DNA of 64,000 bases, from NCBI GenBank assembly GCA_030700155.1, contig JAUYJU010000016.1, positions 1,188 through 65,187 on the forward strand, in the 5' to 3' direction. The translations under genes were made by a program, and so were the position numbers. This document shows positions 10,331-36,845 of this stretch, in pieces. The first letter of the stretch is position 1; each line of letters opens with the position of its first letter. Under the pieces are notes generated by a model, which worked only from the letters and a program-made list of their open reading frames with translations, did not search any database and had not been told where the DNA came from. This DNA comes from Candidatus Nanoarchaeia archaeon (GTDB lineage Archaea > Nanobdellota > Nanobdellia > SCGC-AAA011-G17 > JAUYJU01).

Positions 10331-10978
10331 ATGGATAAAATAATTGGTATTGATGAAGCTGGTCGTGGGCCGGTAATAGGACCTATGGTAATGGCTGGAG
10401 TTTTAATTAGTGAAGACAAGCAAGATGACCTTAGGAAAATAGGAGTTAAGGATTCTAAGTTATTAACTGCCAAAAAAAGAGAAGAACTTTATAACCAAAT
10501 TGTTAAGATGGCTGAAAAGATAGCTATTGTTATTATATCACCTAAAGAGATTGACGAAGCTGTTGAGTCTCAAACTTTAAACTTAAATTGGTTAGAAGCT
10601 ATTAAAACTGCTGAATTGATAAATGCTGCAGAGCCTGATAGGGCTTATATTGACTGCCCTTCTAATAATATTGAAGCTTATAGAAATTATTTGAAAAAAC
10701 TTTTGAGAAAAGATGTGAAATTGATTGTAGAGCACAAAGCTGATTTTAAATATTCAACTTCGGCTGCTGCTTCTATTATTGCTAAAGTAACTAGAGACAG
10801 GGAAATTACAAAGATTCAAAAAAGGTTTAAAGATCCAATGGGTTCTGGGTATCCTGCTGATCCTGTGACTGTAGAGTTCCTGAAAAAACACTGGAAAGAG
10901 GATCAGGGAATCTATAGAAAAAGCTGGGAAACGTATAAAGAGTTGGAACGTAATTCTAGCCAGAAGACTTTAATTTAA
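10331..10978 (+). CDS. rnhB: Ribonuclease HII
   Basis: N-terminal IIGIDEAGRGPVIGPMV catalytic motif. Confidence 0.85.
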   Translation: MDKIIGIDEAGRGPVIGPMVMAGVLISEDKQDDLRKIGVKDSKLLTAKKREELYNQIVKMAEKIAIVIISPKEIDEAVESQTLNLNWLEAIKTAELINAAEPDRAYIDCPSNNIEAYRNYLKKLLRKDVKLIVEHKADFKYSTSAAASIIAKVTRDREITKIQKRFKDPMGSGYPADPVTVEFLKKHWKEDQGIYRKSWETYKELERNSSQKTLI

Positions 10979-12022
10979 ATTTTTAAAAATTTCTTTTCTA
11001 AACTTATAAGTATTAGCTTGCATTGCATATCCAAACCATCCGTGCAAACTGTTGATAAAATTATCATAAGTCAACAGTCCTTCCTTAAATAAGTTTAATC
11101 TTTCATTAAAACTCTTTTCAAATTTCTTCTTATTGCTTCTTCTTAACAATTTATAGTGGTAAAATATCTTATAACCTAGAAAGCTTACGCCGTTTCTTAA
11201 AGACAGTATTTTAGACTTGTCAGGATGTAGTTTTAGTTTAAGCTTGTTAATCAAATAATTGTTTATTATCTCTTTATAATATTCAAGAATTTTCCTATTT
11301 TTATGTAAAATCACAAAATCATCAACGTATCTTATATAGTATTTCGCTTTAAGTTTGTGTTTTACAAAATAATCTAATTCATTCAAATAAACATTAGCAA
11401 AAAATTGAGAAGTGAGGTTGCCCAAAGGCATTCCTCTGCCATTAATTTTTGGACTAAAATTACCTAATATTTGTTTTATTATCCAGATTACTTTTTCGTC
11501 CTTTATCTTTTTATGAATAATTCCCAGCAAAACCTTATGAGAGACGGTTTCAAAATAATGCTTAATATCAGCTTTCAGTAAATAGCCTTGAACCAAGTTG
11601 TTATCAAAAACATTATTTACTAATCTACCATTGCTAGAAACTTTTCTTTTGAATTTATCAAATCTTAAAACTGCCTTACTTGTTCCTTTTTTAAGTCTGC
11701 TGGCGTAAGAATCGTGTATAAATCTTTTCTCAAATATATCGCCTATTACATTAATTATCGCGTGATAAACTACTCTGTCTCTGAAATCTGAAGCGTGTAT
11801 AATCCTTGTTTTTGGTTCTCTTATAATAAACTTTTTTAGTAGTCTAGGAATATATGTTTGAGACTCTAATTCTTCTTTTAATTTATTTAAATTATTTTTA
11901 AGATTTGCTTCAAACTTTTTGACATAAGGTCTCTTTGACTTTCTTTTTCTGGCTTTTCTGAAAGCCTTGCTTAGATTCTCTATTGAACAAAGTTCTTTGT
12001 ATAATTTGTTGTAAGTTTTCAT
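10970..12022 (-). CDS. DGR-type reverse transcriptase
   Basis: RT motifs including YIRYVDDFVILH (YxDD) and MPLGNLTSQFFANVYLNELD. The SQ in motif 4 is the DGR RT hallmark (group II intron RTs have SP). 350 aa, no maturase/endonuclease domains; adjacent TR. Confidence 0.85.
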   Translation of the reverse strand: MKTYNKLYKELCSIENLSKAFRKARKRKSKRPYVKKFEANLKNNLNKLKEELESQTYIPRLLKKFIIREPKTRIIHASDFRDRVVYHAIINVIGDIFEKRFIHDSYASRLKKGTSKAVLRFDKFKRKVSSNGRLVNNVFDNNLVQGYLLKADIKHYFETVSHKVLLGIIHKKIKDEKVIWIIKQILGNFSPKINGRGMPLGNLTSQFFANVYLNELDYFVKHKLKAKYYIRYVDDFVILHKNRKILEYYKEIINNYLINKLKLKLHPDKSKILSLRNGVSFLGYKIFYHYKLLRRSNKKKFEKSFNERLNLFKEGLLTYDNFINSLHGWFGYAMQANTYKFRKEIFKNLN

Positions 12023-12049: not shown

Positions 12050-12160
12050 ATTCCAAGGTCGGAAGTCTCGTCTAATTTCTTAGATTTCGAGTTCTGCGGA
12101 TTCCTGTTGCAATTCAGGTTAACCCTATCGGAATTCGCATCGAACCTCGCGACAGCTGTA
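12050..12160 (-). repeat. DGR template repeat (TR); aligned core 12084..12156
   Basis: Aligns to VR1 and VR2; every difference is at a plus-strand T, i.e. a template adenine on the coding (minus) strand. Confidence 0.85.
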
Positions 12161-12400
12161 GCAGATTTATCAAGTTTCACCATAACTTTAGCTTTCACTT
12201 AAAACTTCCCCAAGGTCTTTCATCACTACTAACTATTGTTATTGTATTTCATGGCATTTAGACTTAAATTGTCCATGCACTATAAATCTGCGTGTAGCCC
12301 AAGACTGCCACTTTCCTAGATTTTTACTGGGATGCAAAAATCTCAAGAGGCAAATTTAGGCAATTCTTCAGAGAATTAAAGGCTATAATAATTTAACTAC

Positions 12401-13204
12401 TCAAATTTTTTCGCGCGCCTGACGTACCCCAAGGCCGGAATTCGAGTACTGCGGATTCCTGTCGCAATCCAGGCCAACCCTATCGGAATCCGCACCGAAC
12501 CCCGCGACATGTTGGTCTCTAGGGAACCAGTAGTGTAAGCTTCCATTATTTGCATTTGGTAAAGGCAATCCTTGAGAAGTTGCATTTTGCAACCAATCTT
12601 CCAAATCTATTCCTGGATCTCTATCTGTCATCAAACAATCTTCCAAAGGTTCTGAATATTTTGGCTGTAATGGTCCATTTACAATTCTATGTCCATAATC
12701 AACCATAAATTCGCTTACTCCTAAAATACCTTTAAAGCCTTTTTTGGATTGCTTTCTGAATTTGGCATCTAGCCACTCTGCCCTATAGGGACTTCTTACT
12801 TCAATGATTTCATTTAAAATTTGAGTTACTCCTTGAGGATTTACTTTCTTTCCTGTTCCGTCGTAAACTACTTTTCCTGATTTTAACAAATTAAGGAAAT
12901 CTACGTACTGCCTTATTGTAAGCATGAAGTTTCCTTCATCGTGTAAACTTTTATGAACTTGATTCCAAGTGTGGTTGTGATATTTTCTTTCTTTTGAAAC
13001 TAACAAATCAGGATATGAATAAGAACCGTGAGTTCTTCCTTCCAATATTAAATAAGCTTCAGGATTTGAAATATTTGAAGCTGGAATTATTATCTTAGGT
13101 TTTGGTTGAGGTTCTGGAGTTTCTTTCTTAGAGTCTAAACTAGCCAGAACTTTTTTCAAATTTTCTTTAGGATCTCTTCCAAAGAATCTTTTAGGTTTTG
13201 TCAT
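12401..13204 (-). CDS. DGR target protein 1 (variable C-terminus; FGE-sulfatase / C-type-lectin-like fold inferred)
   Basis: VR1 occupies the last ~30 codons before the stop. N-terminal 41 aa identical to target 2. C-terminus ..GVRQAREKI. Confidence 0.75.
   Translation of the reverse strand: MTKPKRFFGRDPKENLKKVLASLDSKKETPEPQPKPKIIIPASNISNPEAYLILEGRTHGSYSYPDLLVSKERKYHNHTWNQVHKSLHDEGNFMLTIRQYVDFLNLLKSGKVVYDGTGKKVNPQGVTQILNEIIEVRSPYRAEWLDAKFRKQSKKGFKGILGVSEFMVDYGHRIVNGPLQPKYSEPLEDCLMTDRDPGIDLEDWLQNATSQGLPLPNANNGSLHYWFPRDQHVAGFGADSDRVGLDCDRNPQYSNSGLGVRQAREKI
12419..12499 (-). repeat. DGR variable repeat VR1 (3' end of target 1)
   Basis: 71-nt alignment to TR with 9 mismatches, all TR-T(plus)/A(coding) to A or C. 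Followed by GC-rich ccaaggccgg..cgcgcgcc (IMH plus possible hairpin). Confidence 0.85.
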
Positions 13205-14911
13205 TGTTTCACAAACCTCTTGTAAGTATTTGTTGCTGTATTAACCATTAATTTTGAAAGTTCATCTCCTGAATTTACATAAAACACAGGTAACTCCATA
13301 TTCTCAAGATCTTGCGTGAATGCATTTGATCTTCCTATTTGAATATGTGCAAAATAATTGTCTTTAGTTAATCTTTCAAATTCAGATTTAGCTGAACTCC
13401 AATTTTCTATCTCTCCGTCTGAAATAGACAAAACAAAACTTTCTCTTCCATTTAAAGCATCAACTAAAGTTTTTGCGTCTAATCTTGTGTCTTCCCAATC
13501 TGGAGATAAAGCTAATTTTCTTAGTTTTTGAATATTCTTGAAATCTGATTCTTCATATCTTGTATTTGAAGAAAATAATGATAATCCATGTCCAATATAC
13601 TGAGCTATTCCCTGAGATTGTAAAAACTGTTCAATGCCATAAAAACCTAATAAAGCATAATGATATTTACTATTATCCCCCCAAGGAATAAAAGTCGTAT
13701 CTCCTTGATTTCCATTAATTCCTTCCTGCATAGATCCTGAATTATCCAAGACAACCATCTTGAAATCAGGGAAAGACCTTTTCTGGACTTTTGCTTTTTG
13801 AGTTATTGTCAAAGGTGTTCTTTGATATCCAAATGTAATTCCTTCGTCTGTTGCATATAATTTAGTATGTTTGACTTTTCTAATGTCGTCTGTCTCTGGG
13901 TCAAAAGGTCTGAAATTTAAAGGTGCTATTGCCAAGCCTTGCTCTCTAGTCATTGCTTCAACTTCAACTGGAATTGACCTAGCTAACCTTCTGTATAATA
14001 AATCTAACTGCTCATGAGATTCAAAATTGGGTGAAAGTCCTTCTCCAGATTTGTAGCGTCCATAAGCGACTTCTTCTTTGCCTTCTTTTGTTGAAGCTTT
14101 CTCTTCCAAACCATTTCCACTTGCATCTTGACCTTGAGAATCCTGCCATGCTGAAAGTCTTTCTGTTGGTGGTATTTCTAATAAAGGTTCTAAAGCTTTT
14201 GTAAACCTTGAAGCCATTTCAGGCCATCTTGATTTGTCAAATAGTTTATTTATATCTTTTTCATCCAGATTTAATTCTTTTATTGCTTTATTAACTGCTT
14301 TTTCAACTTCTTTTGTGTTTAAATTGTGCCTCTTTAATAAAGCTTTATCTGCATTGTCTCCCCATAAATGCATGTTTAATTTAACAAAAGCTTCATAAAA
14401 AGGAGTGTAACCTTCTTGCCCTTGTTTTCTGCTTTGAAATCCTTGGTCATCCCAGAATAAAACCTGTCCTGAAAAATTTCCAGTATAATCCCTACATCTT
14501 GCATTATTTATTAAATCTTCAAAAGCGTTTGCTACATAACCTGCCTGTCCTTGCTTGTCTTCTGGTAAGGATTCTTTTACTGCTTCTAAAACTAAATCGT
14601 GGTTATGCGTATCATAAGGGCATCCGAATCCTGAATTGAATGGAAGCTCCCAGTGCCCTAATTCATGGTGTAAAATATCAGTTAATAATTGTGTTTTTGC
14701 ATCTTCAATTTTCTTTTTTCTTGCGTAGGCTTTTTGCCTTCTGCCTGTTACTGGATTAAATCCTTTTTTAACATTCATTTCTATAGTCCAATCTTTTGGA
14801 TTTATGTGCGCAGAAACGTTTTCTTTTGCTTCATCATACTCATTTAATTTCAATGTTCCGCTAACTAGACCTATACTATTCTTTATCCGGTTTAATTCTT
14901 GAACTAAATTC
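13201..14911 (-). CDS. VWA-domain protein with N-terminal HExxH metallopeptidase-like motif (MoxR partner)
   Basis: MIDAS VVLDNSGSMQ in C-terminal half; LHHELGHWELP in N-terminal part. ORF-track start (14997) runs into VR2; real ATG (MNLVQELN) at 14911, 5 nt after target-2 stop. Confidence 0.65.
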
Positions 14912-14915
14912 ATTT

Positions 14916-15620
14916 TCAAATTTTTTCGCGCGCCTGACGTACCCCAAGGTCGGAACCCGAGCCCCGCGGATTCCAGCCGCAAAACAGGCCAACCCAATCG
15001 GAACCCGCATCGAACCCCGCGACAGCTTCATCTATTGGATGCCAGAAATAAACATTATCTCCCTGCTTGTACTTCTGCAATCTTGATTTTTTGGCAGGTA
15101 ATCCTTGTTTGTTTAAGCTTGATAAATCAGCATAACATTCTTCCATTACGCAGCTATCTAGAGATTCTGTATTCTGAGGTACTAATTTACCATTAATTAT
15201 TCTGTGATTGTAACTGATTTTTAATCCGTTATTGTTCGTGAAATAAGCATCAAGATGTTCTGCTCTCCAAGGATCTCTTTTTTCAGTGATTTCATTATAA
15301 ATATTTTTGAATTCATCATTTCCATTCTTTAGAGCTTCAAGAAAATCCAAGAATTCAGGAATTGTGAGCATTCTTGCATCTTCTTTGTGTAAAGATTCAT
15401 GTGATTGATACCAATTTTTATTAAAATGTGTTTTTTGTTTCGCTATGTATAAATTGCGTGAAGGCAAATAAATATAATCTTCTTTGTCAAGACCTTCTGG
15501 AATTATTATCTTAGGTTTTGGTTGAGGTTCTGGAGTTTCTTTCTTAGAGTCTAAACTAGCCAGAACTTTTTTCAAATTTTCTTTAGGATCTCTTCCAAAG
15601 AATCTTTTAGGTTTTGTCAT
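14916..15620 (-). CDS. DGR target protein 2 (paralog of target 1, variable C-terminus)
   Basis: VR2 at 3' end. First ~125 nt identical to target 1. C-terminus ..GVRQAREKI. Confidence 0.75.
   Translation of the reverse strand: MTKPKRFFGRDPKENLKKVLASLDSKKETPEPQPKPKIIIPEGLDKEDYIYLPSRNLYIAKQKTHFNKNWYQSHESLHKEDARMLTIPEFLDFLEALKNGNDEFKNIYNEITEKRDPWRAEHLDAYFTNNNGLKISYNHRIINGKLVPQNTESLDSCVMEECYADLSSLNKQGLPAKKSRLQKYKQGDNVYFWHPIDEAVAGFDAGSDWVGLFCGWNPRGSGSDLGVRQAREKI
14940..15023 (-). repeat. DGR variable repeat VR2 (3' end of target 2)
   Basis: Aligns to TR 12084..12157 with about 21 mismatches, all at TR T(plus)/A(coding). Same GC-rich 3' flank as VR1. Confidence 0.85.
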
Positions 15621-24044: not shown

Positions 24045-27275
<3,231 letters not shown>

Positions 27276-27390
27276 AATGGTATTAACCAGTGATTTCTCA
27301 CACCTATGCACGATTCTCATAAAAATGAAAATCCTTCACCCAAGTCTTTGCGAAAGAACAGGAGCTGCATCGAATTTTTTACTTCTTAAG

Positions 27391-27496
27391 TGGACCCGTC
27401 GGGATTCGAACCCGAGGCCCCTCGCTTTTTTGATTTTCAAAAATCTTTTGAAAACATTTGCAAAGCGAGTGCTCTACCGGACTGAGCTACGGGCCC
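27391..27496 (-). tRNA. tRNA-Ala(UGC) with ~32-nt intron, in 16S-23S spacer
   Basis: gggcccgtagctcagtccggtagagcactcgcttTGCa[intron]agcgaggggcctcgggttcgaatcccgacgggtcca; G3:U70 Ala identity pair; intron after anticodon-loop position 37. Confidence 0.75.
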
Positions 27497-29273: not shown

Positions 29274-29624
29274 ATGGAAGCTCAATTTACTTATTTAACT
29301 TTTGATGAGGAAAGTAGAAGGAAAAGATTGAATATAGGAGTTTATATTTTTCCTACTAATTTAGATATTGGAGTTTATACTAGGGTAAGTTTAATTACTT
29401 TGAATAAACTCTTGGAAAGTGTGAAACTTACTTTTGATGTCAATAAATCTGAAAATGATTTAGATTATGGCTTATTGAGATTAACTGATGAACCCACAGT
29501 TAAACAAAGAAAAGTTGATGGTATACATATTTTAGGTTTTAGGTATCATTTTGAATATGCAATTGAAACTTCTGATTTAGAAACTAGATTAGAAAGTGTT
29601 GGTTTTAAAAAAATATTAAGATAA
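29274..29624 (+). CDS. Hypothetical protein
   Basis: 116-aa ORF convergent with aEF-2. Confidence 0.3.
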   Translation: MEAQFTYLTFDEESRRKRLNIGVYIFPTNLDIGVYTRVSLITLNKLLESVKLTFDVNKSENDLDYGLLRLTDEPTVKQRKVDGIHILGFRYHFEYAIETSDLETRLESVGFKKILR

Positions 29625-32600
29625 ATTTAATTCGTCTCTCAAACCTTTTCTGTTTCTTATTCCTGAAACTATTTTAGCTTGCAAATCTCTTGGGATCTTA
29701 TTAAATTCCTGATCAAGAATAAAGAAGTTACCTTTACCTTCTGTTGCTGATCTTAACTCTGCTGCAAAACCAAACATTTCCCCTACTGGCATTTTTGCCT
29801 TAACTAATAAATTATCTTCTTCATGATTAACATCTAAAAGTTGACCACGTTTATTTTGAACTAATCTTGTAACTGCCCCCATGTACTCTGAGGTAGCATC
29901 AATCTGCAAAACTTGATATGGCTCGAACATTGTAAGTTCTGCATCTACCATTGCTTGTTTTATTCCTTCTCTAACTGCAGGATAAACTTGAGCTGGACCA
30001 CGATGAATTGCATCTTCGTGTAATTTACAATCTGTAATTTCTATAAAAATACTTGTGCAAGGCTCTTTTGCAATTGGACCTTCTTTCATAACTTGCTCAA
30101 ACGCGTCGTTAATTAATTCTTGGACTTCTCCAATATGAACAATACCACGAGTCTCATCCATCAAAATATTTCCATTGTAAATTGCTCTTATTTTTCTTGC
30201 TTCTTTAACTGGAATTCCGTGCTTTTCTAATTCTTGATAAATTCTTGAATCGTTTTTCTTAACTCTTCCGTCTCTTAAAATTGCTTCTTTTATTAAATGT
30301 GACCAAACTGCATCTTGAGGTTTAACTTTTACATAGAATTTATTGTGTTTATTTGGTGATTTACCCTCTACTTCTTGGGATTGTTTTGCAATTGATTCCC
30401 TATAAACAACAATAGGTGGACTTGTCTTAATCTGGAAATTTCTTTCTGTTATAATCCTGTTTTCAATAATTTCTAAGTGTAATTCTCCCATACCTGAAAT
30501 TAAGTTTTCGCCTGTTTCCTGGTTGATTTCTACTTTAATTGAAGGATCTTCTTTAGCTACCTTTCTTAAAATTTCAACTAATTTTGGCAAATCTTGAGGT
30601 TTAGAAGGCTCAATAGATTTTGTGATAACTGGTTCAAAGATATGTTTAAGCTCTTCAAATGGATGATCAGGTTCTTCTGTGATAGTTTCTCCTGCATATC
30701 CTGAAACTCCACCCAAAGCAATAATATTTCCTGCTGGAACCTCATCTAAAGCTTCTGGCTTTACACCTAAGTAAGTATATACCTGAGAAACTCTTTGACT
30801 GACTTTAGCATTATTTAAATAAACTGTTGCTCCTTCTTTTACTGTACCTGAATATAAACGACCTGCTGAAATTTCTCTTCCAAATTTAGGATCTATTGTA
30901 ATCCTGGTTATAACAAAGCCTACTTTTCCTTTTGGATCACAATTCATCAAAGATTTACCAAATGGGGATTCTAAATCTCCTTTCCAGATATGAGGAACTC
31001 TATATGCCTGGGCTTCTTTTGGATTGGGCATATGTTTAATTACCATGTCTAATACAACTTCATTTAGTGGGGCATTTTCCCAAATCCATTTCTGCTGATC
31101 TTCTTCAGAGATACTTTTATCATAAATTTTAAGAATATCTTTGAAACCAATATTTTTTTTCTTCATGAAAGGGAATGACATTGCCCAGTTTTCTCTTGCT
31201 GAACCGAAAGCAACTGACCCATCTGTAATTGAAACCTGCCATTTTGATTTGTACTCTGGTTCTGCAATTCTTTCTATTAGTCTATTAAAAGCAAGAATTA
31301 TTTTCATTATTCTTTCTTGAATTTGTTCTGGAGTTAATTTTAATTCCATAATTAATCTGTCGCATTTATTTATAAAAAGAACTGGTTTTACTCTTTCTCT
31401 TAATGCTTGACGGATAACTGTTTCAGTTTGTGGCATTATTCCTTCCACAGCACAAACCATTGCAATTGTACCATCAATAGCCCTCATCGCTCTTGTAACA
31501 TTTCCACCGAAGTCAACGTGTCCTGGTGTATCAATCATATTAATTAAATATTCTTGGCCATTAAATTCGTGAACCATTGAAAGGTTAGCTGCGTCTACTG
31601 TCATTAATCTTTCTTGCTCATCTAAATGTAACCAAGTAGCCATTCCAGCTTCTAAAGAACCTGCTGCTTTTTTACTCATAAAACCAGAAGAAGCTAATAA
31701 ATTATCAGTTAATGCTGTATTATGAATGACCATTCCCTCTGCAATAAAATTATGGTTATCTGGAATTGTAAAATCGTAAACTTCTTCTTCATAACCTTCT
31801 TCTATTGAGCTTACCTGTAAATAAACTAGATCTTCATTAAAGCATTTGGACATAGTCTGTTCTTGTGCACCCAATTGAATCAGTTTTTGAGTATCATTTG
31901 GGCTTACTCTTGTTGAAGTTTCTATGTTTACCCAATCTGTAACATAACTGCCTACACTTGCATTTGCTAATTTGATTGCTTTATTTTGTTTTTCTTCTAA
32001 GAAAAATCCTATATTTTTTATGAATTCTTTTGCAGAAAAGCCGCTAATATATAATGTATCTCCATTAACTATTGGAACTATATTAAATCTTAAAAGTAAA
32101 AGTGATAGGTCTTTAATCATTTGTGAACTTACAGAAGTTATTGAAATTGCGGATCTTGCTCTTTCTACAGTACCATCGCAATCGAAATATCCTTTTAGAA
32201 GTTTTGCTACTAAATTATTTGGGCTTTTGAAAACAAAATTTGATACTTTAATGTTGTGACTTTTCTTTTTTAATGGATAATCAAATAAGGAATTTAAAAT
32301 ATGTATCAAGGTTTTATTTGTTTCAAATGCTGGTGTTTTTCCTGGATCGTTTTTTGGTCTTGCTTGGAAACCTAAATTGTTGCATATCCTTAAGAATTCT
32401 TTTCCCAAGCTTTCTTTGCCGACTATGAATCTTTTATTGCTTCCGTCTCCAATGAATAACCCTGCTAAATAAAATAACTCTTCAAAATTTTGAGGAAGTT
32501 TAATTGGATTTGAATTACCTCCTCTTTGTTTACCTGTCCTGAATACTAAAGTGCTGATATTATCGTAAACATCGTTTATATTAAACAATTCTGCTATGTT

Positions 32601-33284
32601 TAATAAATCGCTAAGTTGGTATCGATTTTGCCAAACGCCGTGATAAAATGATTTTGTTTTTAGATTAGTTCTTATTTTTAGACATAGTTCTTTTATTCCG
32701 AAGTTTAATATTTTGGTTTTTAATTCTTCTCCAAAGTTTTTATCTGGACAAACATAGAAATTCTTTTCTCTTAATCTATTCAATATTTCATTTTTAATAT
32801 CCAAGTTATTTTCTGTTTTTGTTGATCTTGCGCATACAATATTATCACCTAACTTTAATTCATGAGCTTGCTTTTCTGCGAAATCCATATTTTCTAATAC
32901 AATGTACTTGTGTTCTGGTGTGGTTGTTATTTCAAAACCATTTCTTAATCTAATTTTTATTGTTTTGCCACCTTTTAATTTCCAAGCCAATTCTATCTTT
33001 TTCTTTTCTAATTTTCCTGTTTCCTTATTTAGAGAAAATATTTGGATATCCTTTTTTGATAAATCATAGATTGTGTGCTCTTCCTTTTCTTCAAATTTAG
33101 AACCCTCATTTTTAGCTCTATCGTATATCTCTTTTGCAGTTACTATCTGGCCATCTGCCAATATAATTCTAGAATCTTTAGAAATGCATTTACCGTGATG
33201 AATATGTGCAGAAGTACATATATTCCTTATCTGTTCTGGCTTACTCATAAGCCTTTTTGCTCTATCTAGATATTCGTCAGCCAT
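29616..33284 (-). CDS. fusA: Translation elongation factor 2 (aEF-2) precursor containing a 490-aa intein
   Basis: N-terminal IRNICTSAHIHHGK then Cys-initiated insert, resuming ..HN/TALTDNLLASSG; downstream EF-2 domains (G', II-V). Without the intein, ~732 aa. Confidence 0.9.
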   Translation of the reverse strand: MADEYLDRAKRLMSKPEQIRNICTSAHIHHGKCISKDSRIILADGQIVTAKEIYDRAKNEGSKFEEKEEHTIYDLSKKDIQIFSLNKETGKLEKKKIELAWKLKGGKTIKIRLRNGFEITTTPEHKYIVLENMDFAEKQAHELKLGDNIVCARSTKTENNLDIKNEILNRLREKNFYVCPDKNFGEELKTKILNFGIKELCLKIRTNLKTKSFYHGVWQNRYQLSDLLNIAELFNINDVYDNISTLVFRTGKQRGGNSNPIKLPQNFEELFYLAGLFIGDGSNKRFIVGKESLGKEFLRICNNLGFQARPKNDPGKTPAFETNKTLIHILNSLFDYPLKKKSHNIKVSNFVFKSPNNLVAKLLKGYFDCDGTVERARSAISITSVSSQMIKDLSLLLLRFNIVPIVNGDTLYISGFSAKEFIKNIGFFLEEKQNKAIKLANASVGSYVTDWVNIETSTRVSPNDTQKLIQLGAQEQTMSKCFNEDLVYLQVSSIEEGYEEEVYDFTIPDNHNFIAEGMVIHNTALTDNLLASSGFMSKKAAGSLEAGMATWLHLDEQERLMTVDAANLSMVHEFNGQEYLINMIDTPGHVDFGGNVTRAMRAIDGTIAMVCAVEGIMPQTETVIRQALRERVKPVLFINKCDRLIMELKLTPEQIQERIMKIILAFNRLIERIAEPEYKSKWQVSITDGSVAFGSARENWAMSFPFMKKKNIGFKDILKIYDKSISEEDQQKWIWENAPLNEVVLDMVIKHMPNPKEAQAYRVPHIWKGDLESPFGKSLMNCDPKGKVGFVITRITIDPKFGREISAGRLYSGTVKEGATVYLNNAKVSQRVSQVYTYLGVKPEALDEVPAGNIIALGGVSGYAGETITEEPDHPFEELKHIFEPVITKSIEPSKPQDLPKLVEILRKVAKEDPSIKVEINQETGENLISGMGELHLEIIENRIITERNFQIKTSPPIVVYRESIAKQSQEVEGKSPNKHNKFYVKVKPQDAVWSHLIKEAILRDGRVKKNDSRIYQELEKHGIPVKEARKIRAIYNGNILMDETRGIVHIGEVQELINDAFEQVMKEGPIAKEPCTSIFIEITDCKLHEDAIHRGPAQVYPAVREGIKQAMVDAELTMFEPYQVLQIDATSEYMGAVTRLVQNKRGQLLDVNHEEDNLLVKAKMPVGEMFGFAAELRSATEGKGNFFILDQEFNKIPRDLQAKIVSGIRNRKGLRDELNLS
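31719..33188 (-). mobile_element. Intein with LAGLIDADG homing-endonuclease domain, inserted in the aEF-2 P-loop (GK|T)
   Basis: Begins CISKDSRI.. directly after AHIHHGK; contains ELFYLAGLFIGDGSNK and LLKGYFDCDGTV (two LAGLIDADG motifs); ends ..GMVIHN followed by extein Thr. Confidence 0.8.
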
Positions 33285-33351
33285 TAATTATCCCTAAGAT
33301 ATTTTTTCTTGCTAGTTTATATATAAAGGTTTTGATTGGTTACTATTACTT

Positions 33352-34933: not shown

Positions 34934-35893
34934 ATGGAAGATACATTTAAAAAGGTTATTATCAAGGATCTAATTATGAGATATAACAGACAAGCCCTCT
35001 ACCTTGAAAATGATGCGCTTTTGAGGGGTAAGAAAGTAGCTATTGTTGGTATTGGAGCTCTAGGTAGTGTAGCTGCTGAACTATTAGTTAGGGCAGGCAT
35101 TGGATGGATTATACTAATAGATAGAGATTCTGTTGAATTAAGTAATTTACAAAGACAGTCTTTATTTGATGAAAATGATGTTGGAAAAATGAAAGCTATT
35201 CAGGCTAAGGAACATTTAGATAAAATAAATTCTGATGTAACTGTAGAAGCATTTTCTGAAGATTTAGATTATGAAAATATTGATTTAATTAATGCTGATT
35301 TAGTTTTAGATTGTACTGATAATTTAGAAACTAGACATTTGATTAATGAATATTGTAATAAGAAAAAAATAAAATGGATTTATTCTGGAGCAATACAAAA
35401 TAGAGGATTTATATTTAATGTGATTCCTGATAATGCTTGTTTTAATTGCATTGTAAAAGCTAAACATGGTGTTGAAACATGTGATACTGTTGGAGTTTTG
35501 AATTCTATTACGCATACAATTGGAAGTTTACAAGTTAATGAGGCTGTTAAACTATTATTAAATAAGGATTATGAAAAAGATTTGATGCATATTAATCTAG
35601 AAAATAATGAAATTAAGAAATTAAAAGTAAATAAAGATAGTGAATGTGAAGTCTGCAACGGAAATTATGAATATTTATCTGGCAAGCAGGAAAATAAGCT
35701 TATTAAATTGTGTGGTACTGGTAAATATCAGATAAAGGGGGATTTTGATTTTGAGGGTTTAAAGAAAAGATTTGGAAAAGAAGGTGATGTGATTATTTTA
35801 GATAATTTAACTATCTTTAAAAATAGAGTATTAGTGAAAGCTAAAGATGAAGCAGAAGCAAAATCTTTATATTCTAAATTCATTGGTGCTTAG
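34934..35893 (+). CDS. ubaA: E1-like SAMP-activating enzyme (UbaA; MoeB/ThiF family)
   Basis: RYNRQ motif, nucleotide-binding VAIVGIGALGSVAAELLVRAGIG, catalytic Cys ETCDTVGV, C-terminal CxxC. Confidence 0.75.
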   Translation: MEDTFKKVIIKDLIMRYNRQALYLENDALLRGKKVAIVGIGALGSVAAELLVRAGIGWIILIDRDSVELSNLQRQSLFDENDVGKMKAIQAKEHLDKINSDVTVEAFSEDLDYENIDLINADLVLDCTDNLETRHLINEYCNKKKIKWIYSGAIQNRGFIFNVIPDNACFNCIVKAKHGVETCDTVGVLNSITHTIGSLQVNEAVKLLLNKDYEKDLMHINLENNEIKKLKVNKDSECEVCNGNYEYLSGKQENKLIKLCGTGKYQIKGDFDFEGLKKRFGKEGDVIILDNLTIFKNRVLVKAKDEAEAKSLYSKFIGA

Positions 35894-35894
35894 T

Positions 35895-36845
35895 ATGGCT
35901 AAATTATTTATCTTATTATGCTTAATTATTATAGTTGGTGGTTGTGCAGAACAATCATTTAACATAATTAGCAGATCAAATTCTGCATGGGAAAGAAAAA
36001 CTGATTTACTAACTGCGAGAGATGAGATTGATGCTGTTGCTTTAAATGGAAAAATCTATGCAATAGGTGGTTTTGAGAAAACTGGTTCTGTAACTAAATT
36101 TGTTGAAGAATATAATCTTGAAAAAAATGAATGGAAATTTGAAACTATAACTCCAATAGCCCTACATCATCCTGGAGCTGCGGCTGTAAACGGAAAAATC
36201 TATGTGATTGGTGGATTTTCAAAGGGTTGGACTCCTGTTGCAGAAGTTTATGAATACGATCCCATCTCTGATAAGTGGACTAAAAAAACTTCCATGAATT
36301 TTGCTAGAGGCGCTTTGACTGTTGCGGCGGTAAATGGAAGAATATATGCGATAGGGGGAATGGATCAAAATGTTTTAGATATTTTGGAAGTTTATAATCC
36401 AAATTATGATAGTTGGGAAGTAATAGCAAATATGCCAACTGCGAGAGCTTATGCCGCATCTTCTTCTGTGGATGGAAAAATCTATGTTATCGGTGGAAGA
36501 CAGAGTGAAAATGGAAACGGTGTTAATGTGAATGAGGTTTATGATCCTTTGACAAATACTTGGGAAACAAAAAAAGCTATGCCTACAATTAGAAGTGGGT
36601 TGGCTGCTGCTTCAATTGGAAATAAAATCTACGTTATTGGTGGAGAAAATGTTATAAAAACTTATGATCTAAATGAAGTTTATGATACTAAAACTGATTC
36701 CTGGAGTTTTGCACAAAACATGCCAACTGCGAGACATGGACTTGGTGCTGTAAGTTTAAATGGAAAGGTATATACTATTGCTGGTGGTTTAAGTCCTGGT
36801 GCAAGTTATAGTAATTTATTAGAAGTTTTCACGCCTTCAAATTAA
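35895..36845 (+). CDS. Kelch-repeat beta-propeller protein, exported (N-terminal signal/lipobox-like)
   Basis: Six repeats of NGKIYxIGG...W pattern; signal MAKLFILLCLIIIVGGCAE. Start chosen at Met-17 of the track ORF, directly after the ubaA stop. Confidence 0.6.
   Translation: MAKLFILLCLIIIVGGCAEQSFNIISRSNSAWERKTDLLTARDEIDAVALNGKIYAIGGFEKTGSVTKFVEEYNLEKNEWKFETITPIALHHPGAAAVNGKIYVIGGFSKGWTPVAEVYEYDPISDKWTKKTSMNFARGALTVAAVNGRIYAIGGMDQNVLDILEVYNPNYDSWEVIANMPTARAYAASSSVDGKIYVIGGRQSENGNGVNVNEVYDPLTNTWETKKAMPTIRSGLAAASIGNKIYVIGGENVIKTYDLNEVYDTKTDSWSFAQNMPTARHGLGAVSLNGKVYTIAGGLSPGASYSNLLEVFTPSN

Follow-up and report, generated by a model that had tools for sequence, protein, structure and literature searches.

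The gene for archaeal elongation factor 2 (aEF-2) in a 64-kb stretch of contig JAUYJU010000016.1, from a Candidatus Nanoarchaeia archaeon (the whole stretch being referred to here as the window), encodes a 1222-amino-acid precursor whose GTP-binding loop is very probably split by a class-1 intein with a nested, double-motif LAGLIDADG homing endonuclease, inserted between Lys32 and Thr523 of the Walker-A/G1 motif. The window intein belongs to an EF-2 intein allele that is common in DPANN archaea. A broader claim is offered tentatively, as one we hold slightly less probable than its converse: that this pairing of intein allele and host is uncatalogued in the searchable literature, is abundant and polymorphic in DPANN, and has jumped at least once, as a mini-intein, to the translation factor aIF5B. 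A description of an EF-2 intein was not found in the searchable literature, with subscription papers and supplements outside reach, and an earlier listing in a table is possible.

Nothing unusual is implied for the window itself, as the element is common and the host protein is already correctly named: NCBI nr holds an identical 1222-residue protein (P0036) as 'MAG: elongation factor EF-2 [Candidatus Nanoarchaeia archaeon]'. A first-pass annotation, made from the sequence of the window, had warned of easy mis-annotation at this gene. The warning does not hold for this protein, and applies only to fragments of relatives, deposited as 'GTP-binding protein, partial' or as 'hypothetical protein'. 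Phylogenies routinely use EF-2 as a marker, and genome completeness is scored with it as a single-copy gene. In DPANN genomes, an in-frame P-loop insertion of 1.47 kb can disrupt alignments of such markers, the domain boundaries of hidden Markov models (HMMs), and length filters.

Host gene and insertion site

The precursor matches the Pfam families GTP_EFTU, GTP_EFTU_D2, EFG_III, EFG_IV, and EFG_C. The NCBIfam aEF-2 model TIGR00490 scores 916.6 bits on it, in two stretches; removal in silico of residues 33-522 leaves 732 amino acids, on which the same model scores 942 bits (equivalog cut-off, 738.45 bits) in a single stretch, with residues 6-728 aligned to model positions 6-720 of 720. The PRK14845 profile, which describes intein-containing IF-2, spans the N-extein/intein junction (precursor residues 22-439) at 190 bits against a cut-off of 756, and the host is not aIF5B/IF-2. 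It is a single-copy-type aEF-2 gene of a DPANN ('Nanoarchaeia'/Woesearchaeota-like) archaeon.

The gene occupies 29616..33284 on the minus strand, with an ATG start, 1222 codons, and a stop. Its N-extein (residues 1-32; 33189..33284, minus), translated as MADEYLDRAKRLMSKPEQIRNICTSAHIHHGK and closing with ...NICTSAHIHHGK, ends within the G1 P-loop, after its first half (SAHIHHGK). The 490-residue intein follows (precursor residues 33-522; 31719..33188, minus), starting with CISKD and ending with MVIHN, after which the C-extein (residues 523-1222 and the stop codon; 29616..31718, minus) resumes in the translation with TALTDNLLA (TALTDNLLASSG...). The first residue of the C-extein is the +1 nucleophile, Thr523 (31716..31718, minus). 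Its Pfam domains and a direct reading of its sequence place in the C-extein the rest of the GTPase domain (G3, DTPGH; G4, NKCD), domains II-V, and the diphthamide-site motif HEDAIHRG, readable as the His loop HEDAIHRGP; the remaining GTPase motif, G1, reads AHIHHGKT after splicing. The first-pass annotation had proposed a 490-residue LAGLIDADG intein in a 1222-residue aEF-2 reading frame, between the Lys and Thr of G1, with Cys at position 1, a terminal His-Asn, a Thr at +1, and a spliced length of about 732 residues. All of this agrees with the translation, the insertion point to the residue.

Domain architecture and conservation of the intein

Profile matches to the insert are far beyond chance. 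The Pfam family Intein_splicing (PF14890) scores 105 bits (E 4e-30; cut-off 35.8), and its model is fully covered, 1-155 of 155, by intein residues 8-490, with the endonuclease as an internal insertion. LAGLIDADG_3 (PF14528) scores 53 bits (E 3.5e-14; cut-off 22.5), and the intein N-terminal model TIGR01445 (intein_Nterm) scores 61 bits (cut-off 24.5) over precursor residues 33-126. Among sequences in the PDB, the best match is PI-PkoII (2cw7, E 2e-14), with further matches to the CDC21-1, KlbA, PolII, VMA, RadA, and DnaB inteins and to PI-PfuI.

The insert can be read, on the minus strand throughout, as four structured parts. The N-terminal splicing lobe (intein residues 1-125; 32814..33188) is supported by TIGR01445, by invariant residues, and by sequence matches to the CDC21-1, KlbA, and PolII intein structures, and contains the block A Cys1 (33186..33188) and the block B motif TTPEH (32910..32924) with Thr90 and His93. 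A mainly helical middle domain follows (residues 131-230; 32499..32798). The LAGLIDADG homing-endonuclease domain (residues 232-412; 31953..32495), assigned by LAGLIDADG_3, carries motif 1, LAGLFIGDG with the catalytic Asp248 (32442..32468), and motif 2, LKGYFDCDG with the catalytic Asp338 (32172..32198), at the positions of the two blocks (LAGLFIGDGS and FDCDGTV) that the first-pass annotation had singled out. The C-terminal splicing lobe (residues 453-490; 31719..31832), verified in translation, holds block F (VYDFTIPDNHNF, that is, VYD472FT...HNF) and block G (MVIH489N490). Splicing blocks A, B, F, and G are thus all present.

An AlphaFold2 model of the intein, built on nine homologues, has a mean pLDDT of 89.7 and a pTM of 0.90. 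In this model, the endonuclease is nested between the N- and C-terminal splicing lobes and forms a pseudo-dimer of two helix-strand repeats (residues 235-302 and 324-392), and the C-terminal lobe follows a variable stretch modelled with low confidence (residues 413-452). The middle domain shows helices at residues 131-140, 150-163, 165-172, 178-186, and 192-201 and a strand at 144-148; it may be a DNA-recognition or 'stirrup'-type domain, and it is absent, by deletion, from the mini-inteins described below. Searched against the PDB with Foldseek, the model recovers PI-PkoII (2cw7, E 5e-24), TliVMA (7qss), and PI-PfuI (1dq3) at the top, along with the intein-endonucleases PhoVMA and PI-SceI (1vde). 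Mini-inteins come next, at a root-mean-square deviation of 1.8-2.4 Å over the splicing domain (about 120 residues), and a structural match is also obtained with I-DmoI, a free-standing LAGLIDADG enzyme.

To assess residue conservation, the window intein was aligned to 72 others that occupy the same site in GTDB species representatives. Cys1, His93, Asp472, and Asn490 are invariant (73/73), Thr90 is conserved in 72/73, and the block G His489 in 69/73; the +1 residue is Thr in all 73 GTDB loci and in all 75 resolved metagenome loci. In block G, the penultimate His is replaced by Ser or Asn in four same-site EF-2 inteins (L009, L034, and L058, ...FISN/T; L074, ...VINN/T; here and below a slash marks a splice junction), and these may use a different assist for Asn cyclisation. 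A Woesearchaeota metagenome-assembled genome (MAG) has an in-frame stop within the EF-2 intein reading frame (L012, JBDRFS010000059.1); this may mean that the intein is pseudogenised, that the stop is a sequencing error, or that it is recoded.

Predicted splicing and homing

It is established for P-loop NTPases that a large insert in Walker A precludes GTP binding. With its P-loop split, the 1222-residue precursor would not bind GTP and would therefore not be an active GTPase, so that EF-2 activity would depend on splicing. The ability to splice is inferred from the essentiality of EF-2 together with the intact catalytic residues, and the endonuclease is likewise predicted to cleave DNA. By analogy with the families involved, splicing would begin with an N-S acyl shift at Cys1, helped by Thr90 and His93 of block B; the +1 Thr would then attack the thioester in a trans-esterification, and cyclisation of Asn490, helped by His489 and the block F Asp472, would release the intein. 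A final O-N shift would yield the 732-residue EF-2, with the loop AHIHHGK-TALTD, and a free 490-residue protein. The predicted tryptic peptide across the ligated junction is TALTDNLLASSGFMSK, preceded by ...HHGK.

In a homing event, the freed intein or the precursor would cut an intein-less EF-2 allele over some 20-40 bp across ...CATATTCATCACGGTAAA/ACAGCATTAACTGAT..., the junction in such an allele being ...CATCACGGTAAA/ACAGCATTA..., and repair from an intein-bearing copy would then copy the element into the cut allele.

Natural empty sites and the G1 motif

Intein-free alleles of the same gene are found among close relatives, as the first-pass annotation had suggested might be checked. After the identical P0036, the closest EF-2 is P0037, a 734-residue protein that is 82% identical and has no intein; its junction is uninterrupted (...SAHIHHGKTALTDNLLA..., also given as ...NICTSAHIHHGKTALTDNLLAAAG...). 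The P0037 contig, L081, has the same upstream neighbours as the window (ThiF, ThiS, a PP-loop ATPase, and a methyltransferase), and its empty-site DNA, CAGATTAGAAATATTTGTACTTCTGCGCATATTCATCACGGAAAA/ACGGCGTTAACTGACAATCTT..., a candidate substrate for the endonuclease, is identical to the spliced-junction DNA of the window at 71 of 90 bases. More broadly, AHIHHGK-TA is contiguous in 108/108 intein-free orthologues among the 120 best extein relatives. Since these natural empty alleles read AHIHHGK-TA, precise excision from the window precursor restores their exact sequence. The first-pass annotation is supported in its expectation that excision would give a contiguous motif; the motif restored is AHIHHGKTA, and not GHxDHGKTT as it had proposed.

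The spliced G1 motif (33189..33209 joined to 31710..31718) thus has His for Asp and Ala for Thr. The near-universal EF-2 form of G1 is AHxDHGKT[TS]. AHIHHGKTA is common to the 108 intein-free and the 12 intein-bearing close relatives, and the two substitutions, as read from these sequences, are a clade trait. In other DPANN groups, 17 of 73 GTDB loci retain the Asp, as AHIDHGK-TT in 16 and AHTDHGK-TT in one. That the altered loop is an adaptation to the intein was considered and is ruled out by the 108 intein-free close orthologues that carry the same loop.

Distribution across DPANN

A scan of GTDB, taking one genome per species, returned 167 tblastn-confirmed relatives of the intein. Among the best 80 of these, all 73 loci with both junctions resolved have the insertion at the same EF-2 site, AHI[HD]HGK/C...N/T[AT]; the hosts are Woese-, Pace-, Nano-, Iain-, Micr-, and Parvarchaeota MAGs, amounting to at least 73 GTDB species representatives. 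A metagenome scan added 203 relatives, 75 of them resolved, as 44 full-length EF-2 inteins, 30 EF-2 mini-inteins of about 198 residues, and one intein in aIF5B. In an exhaustive phmmer search of 1.84 billion representatives, 34 clusters passed E<=1e-30 and 422 passed E<=1e-10; a word-index search with the intein alone had incomplete recall, failing to recover P0036 itself, and its counts are lower bounds. In host, site, and domain order, the DPANN same-site inteins (for example L053, L003, L001, P0045, and P0051) correspond to the window intein, to which they are 41-69% identical, with no essential difference; in the variable region at residues 413-452, the window intein is of intermediate length among them.

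Seven of the same-site loci carry unexpected taxonomic labels. Six are assigned to an 'uncultured Methanosarcinales archaeon' (L014, L026, L045, L051, L052, and L059) and one to a 'Candidatus Dojkabacteria bacterium' (L017). All have a DPANN-type EF-2 (AHIHHGK-TA) with the same-site intein, and it looks as though the labels are wrong or the contigs are contaminants.

Among the close relatives of the window gene, occupancy is patchy. The 120 nearest EF-2 proteins comprise 108 that are intein-free, 8 with mini-inteins (about 198 residues), and 4 with full-length inteins; a neighbour-joining tree built from the exteins requires nine or more presence/absence changes to account for the 12 occupied alleles, and occupied and empty alleles lie as near as 0.06 in distance. 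This patchiness, together with mini-inteins derived by deletion, is the classical signature of a homing cycle, and suggests that the element may cycle across DPANN from empty site, to full-length intein, to endonuclease-less mini-intein. The locus therefore offers a natural replicate series of empty, mini, and full-length alleles in an essential and highly conserved translation gene, which could be used for the study of the homing cycle and of transfer from one P-loop to another.

Active homing, relic, or regulatory element

Several observations weigh against the reading of this pattern as active homing. The nearest intein (L053) is 69% identical to that of the window, approximately the identity of the corresponding exteins (69%), in a range (amino-acid identity of 69% or less) where synonymous sites are saturated. 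Intein and extein identities are correlated (Spearman 0.58). The two catalytic residues of the endonuclease are conserved, Asp248 in 73/73 and Asp338 in 71/73 of the aligned inteins, a figure that is partly built in, the loci having been retrieved with patterns from both LAGLIDADG motifs. The GC content at third codon positions (GC3) is 20.6% in the intein and 19.2% in the extein, effectively equal, which indicates long residence in such a genome. From the correlation, the 69% nearest intein, and the equal GC3, it follows that much of the pattern can be put down to vertical descent with repeated precise loss. No recent transfer into the lineage of the window is seen, nor did an IMG/VR scan with the intein alignment find a virus-borne EF-2 intein; its matches are distant inteins, mostly 21-34% identical, with one short segment at 58%. 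The first-pass annotation had taken the intein to mark active selfish-element traffic in this lineage. The polymorphism among close alleles and the conserved endonuclease residues speak for that statement; the identity of the nearest intein, and its tracking of the extein, do not; active traffic in this lineage is a plausible reading and no more.

The same observations bear on an unlikely alternative, in which the window intein would be a stranded relic that has kept splicing, EF-2 being essential, with an endonuclease that no longer cuts; such an element would pass down vertically and be lost only by a rare precise deletion. As a relic would have it, divergent hosts share no near-identical inteins, the best identity (69%) being about that of the exteins, and intein and extein identities move together. 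Mini-inteins are also frequent, at 8 of 12 occupied close alleles and 30 of 74 EF-2 metagenome loci, so that endonuclease decay must be frequent as well. However, both catalytic Asp residues and their surrounding motifs are intact in the window intein. Mean pairwise identity over the 73 species-level lineages is 55.5% in the endonuclease, against 51% in the N-terminal splicing lobe and 44% in the middle domain, the least conserved of the structured domains; this is not what a decaying domain would show, and neutral decay would erase it. Where the endonuclease is lost, moreover, it is lost by deletion and not by slow decay.

Still less probable, and in our view distinctly improbable, is that the intein has been domesticated as a regulatory element, with conditional splicing (in response to redox state, temperature, or substrate) gating EF-2. 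Conditional splicing of P-loop inteins was reportedly proposed by Lennon et al. in 2016. It has also been proposed by Novikova et al. (2016; PMC4760082), and a precursor interrupted in its P-loop is necessarily inactive. In conservation, the intein about equals its host, one of the most conserved proteins known, and it is widespread, with the 167 confirmed matches among GTDB species representatives. Against this reading, 90% of the closest EF-2 orthologues lack an intein, and presence and absence flip between near-identical alleles. The conservation of endonuclease catalytic residues answers to the needs of a mobile element and not to those of a switch, and no regulatory feature was identified in the intein. 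Finally, a lineage-specific insertion domain retained in the mature protein, or an assembly chimera, can be set aside as having next to no probability, given that splicing blocks A, B, F, and G are all present and invariant, that the HINT and LAGLIDADG folds are recovered, that the identical arrangement recurs in independent assemblies from many studies, and that 490 residues between the Lys and Thr of Walker A are incompatible with GTP binding.

Relation to known inteins

The closest structural counterparts of the window intein are PI-PkoII (Tko Pol-2, 2cw7), PI-PfuI (Pfu RIR1-1, 1dq3), and TliVMA/PhoVMA (7qss, 7qst). In each of these, as in the window intein, a double-motif LAGLIDADG endonuclease interrupts the HINT fold, an additional domain lies between them, and the structural matches are strong (E 5e-24 to 3e-18, with TM values reaching 0.77 on the target). 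However, PI-PkoII, PI-PfuI, and TliVMA are only 17-18% identical to the window intein in sequence, target sites differ, and the hosts are a DNA polymerase, a ribonucleotide reductase, and a V-ATPase.

A closer parallel in position is provided by the aIF5B ('IF2') inteins of Thermococcales, Methanococcales, and their relatives, which interrupt a paralogous GTPase at GHVDHGK/C, the position of AHIHHGK/C in the window, and which are also Cys1 LAGLIDADG inteins. Representatives with the intein directly after GK include P0178, P0199, P0232, P0240, and P0247. Apart from their different host gene, these inteins share no more than about 26-31% identity with the window intein, which indicates a different intein allele and lineage. 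In the survey by Novikova et al. (2016; PMC4760082), 15 inteins are listed for aIF2 (COG0532) and translation genes are said to hold few inteins; the terms 'EF-2', 'EF2', and 'elongation factor' are absent from its main text.

Beyond EF-2, the next-nearest relatives recovered by phmmer (P0178-P0263; 26-36% identity) all lie directly after the Walker-A GK of other NTPases. The sites include GHVDHGK/C in aIF5B, G[FL]NGxGK/C in SRP54/FtsY-type proteins, GDPGVAK/C in MCM, GGFGTGK/C in a V-ATPase-like protein (V/A-ATPase A subunit), and GGTASGK/C in VirB11-like proteins. These wider GK/C inteins begin C[VI]xxx[TS], like the window intein, whereas their hosts are unrelated or only distantly related. 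Together they point to a broad guild of P-loop-targeting inteins, and their placement agrees with published notes on P-loop inteins (PMC4760082; PMC10710043), including related inteins in the P-loops of unrelated proteins in Anaeramoeba (PMC10710043).

A mini-intein of EF-2 type in aIF5B

One aIF5B lineage (protein P0026; L082, 5824-8163; also L083-L085 and L098) carries a 198-residue mini-intein at VAGHVDHGK/C...VHN/TTLLD, its P-loop DNA reading GGGCATGTTGACCATGGCAAA/ACAACCCTACTTGAC. P0026, held by the genome assembly GCA_964548525.1, occurs on six contigs from independent assemblies, with a 99% identical copy in L098. Compared with EF-2 mini-inteins, the aIF5B element shows protein identity of 71-74% and DNA identity of 76%, and it has their deletion linker; 74 of its 75 nearest resolved relatives in the metagenome scan sit in EF-2. 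In the flanking DNA, only 27 of 54 nt are identical between the aIF5B and EF-2 mini-intein loci. To judge from these comparisons, the aIF5B mini-intein looks like the product of a single hop between paralogues, from EF-2 to aIF5B, by an element without an endonuclease. If this is correct, it would represent an archaeal P-loop transfer between paralogues in which an intein was mobilised in trans, or by illegitimate recombination, without an endonuclease of its own. A 2023 study of Anaeramoeba describes transfers between paralogues as 'not formally described before' (PMC10710043).

Genomic context and other elements of the window

The EF-2 gene lies downstream of the genes for a small methyltransferase and a PP-loop ATPase and just upstream of the 16S-tRNA-23S operon, in a window that is AT-rich (33% GC) and clearly archaeal. 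A TATA-box-like element, TTTATATATAA (33317..33327, minus), ends 33 nt upstream of the ATG and is the probable archaeal promoter of the gene. A scan for sigma-70 promoters and terminators gave counts below shuffled expectation; it is not meaningful for an archaeon. On the opposite strand, a 116-residue open reading frame without a Pfam match (29274..29624, plus) lies in the AT-rich region that separates EF-2 from the 16S rRNA gene; it runs over the EF-2 stop codon and is probably not a gene. No other intein of this family was detected in the window, only the EF-2 gene being matched by an A1-based HMM among six-frame open reading frames of at least 80 residues.

The neighbouring 23S rRNA gene (24045..27286) spans 3242 nt, compared with 2987 nt for its model, and within it Rfam places a group I intron (RF00028; 25061..25348, minus) at 53.9 bits, above the gathering score of 50. 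With the intein, it would make two self-splicing elements within 5 kb. In the 16S-23S spacer (27391..27496, minus), Rfam calls a tRNA of 106 nt at 58 bits that ARAGORN does not report; it is presumably an archaeal-type spacer tRNA with an intron.

Further away, an RT-16 RNA motif (RF03019, 91.9 bits; 12153..12347, minus) stands directly upstream of a gene for a 350-residue reverse transcriptase (10970..12022, minus; Pfam RVT_1, 70 bits), and this pair is a reverse-transcriptase-associated non-coding RNA system in a DPANN genome. Two open reading frames upstream of it (12401..13204 and 13201..14997) have no Pfam match. Kelch repeats are an uncommon domain family in archaea, and a 332-residue protein encoded at 35847..36845 (plus) contains at least five of them (Kelch_1, 225 bits).

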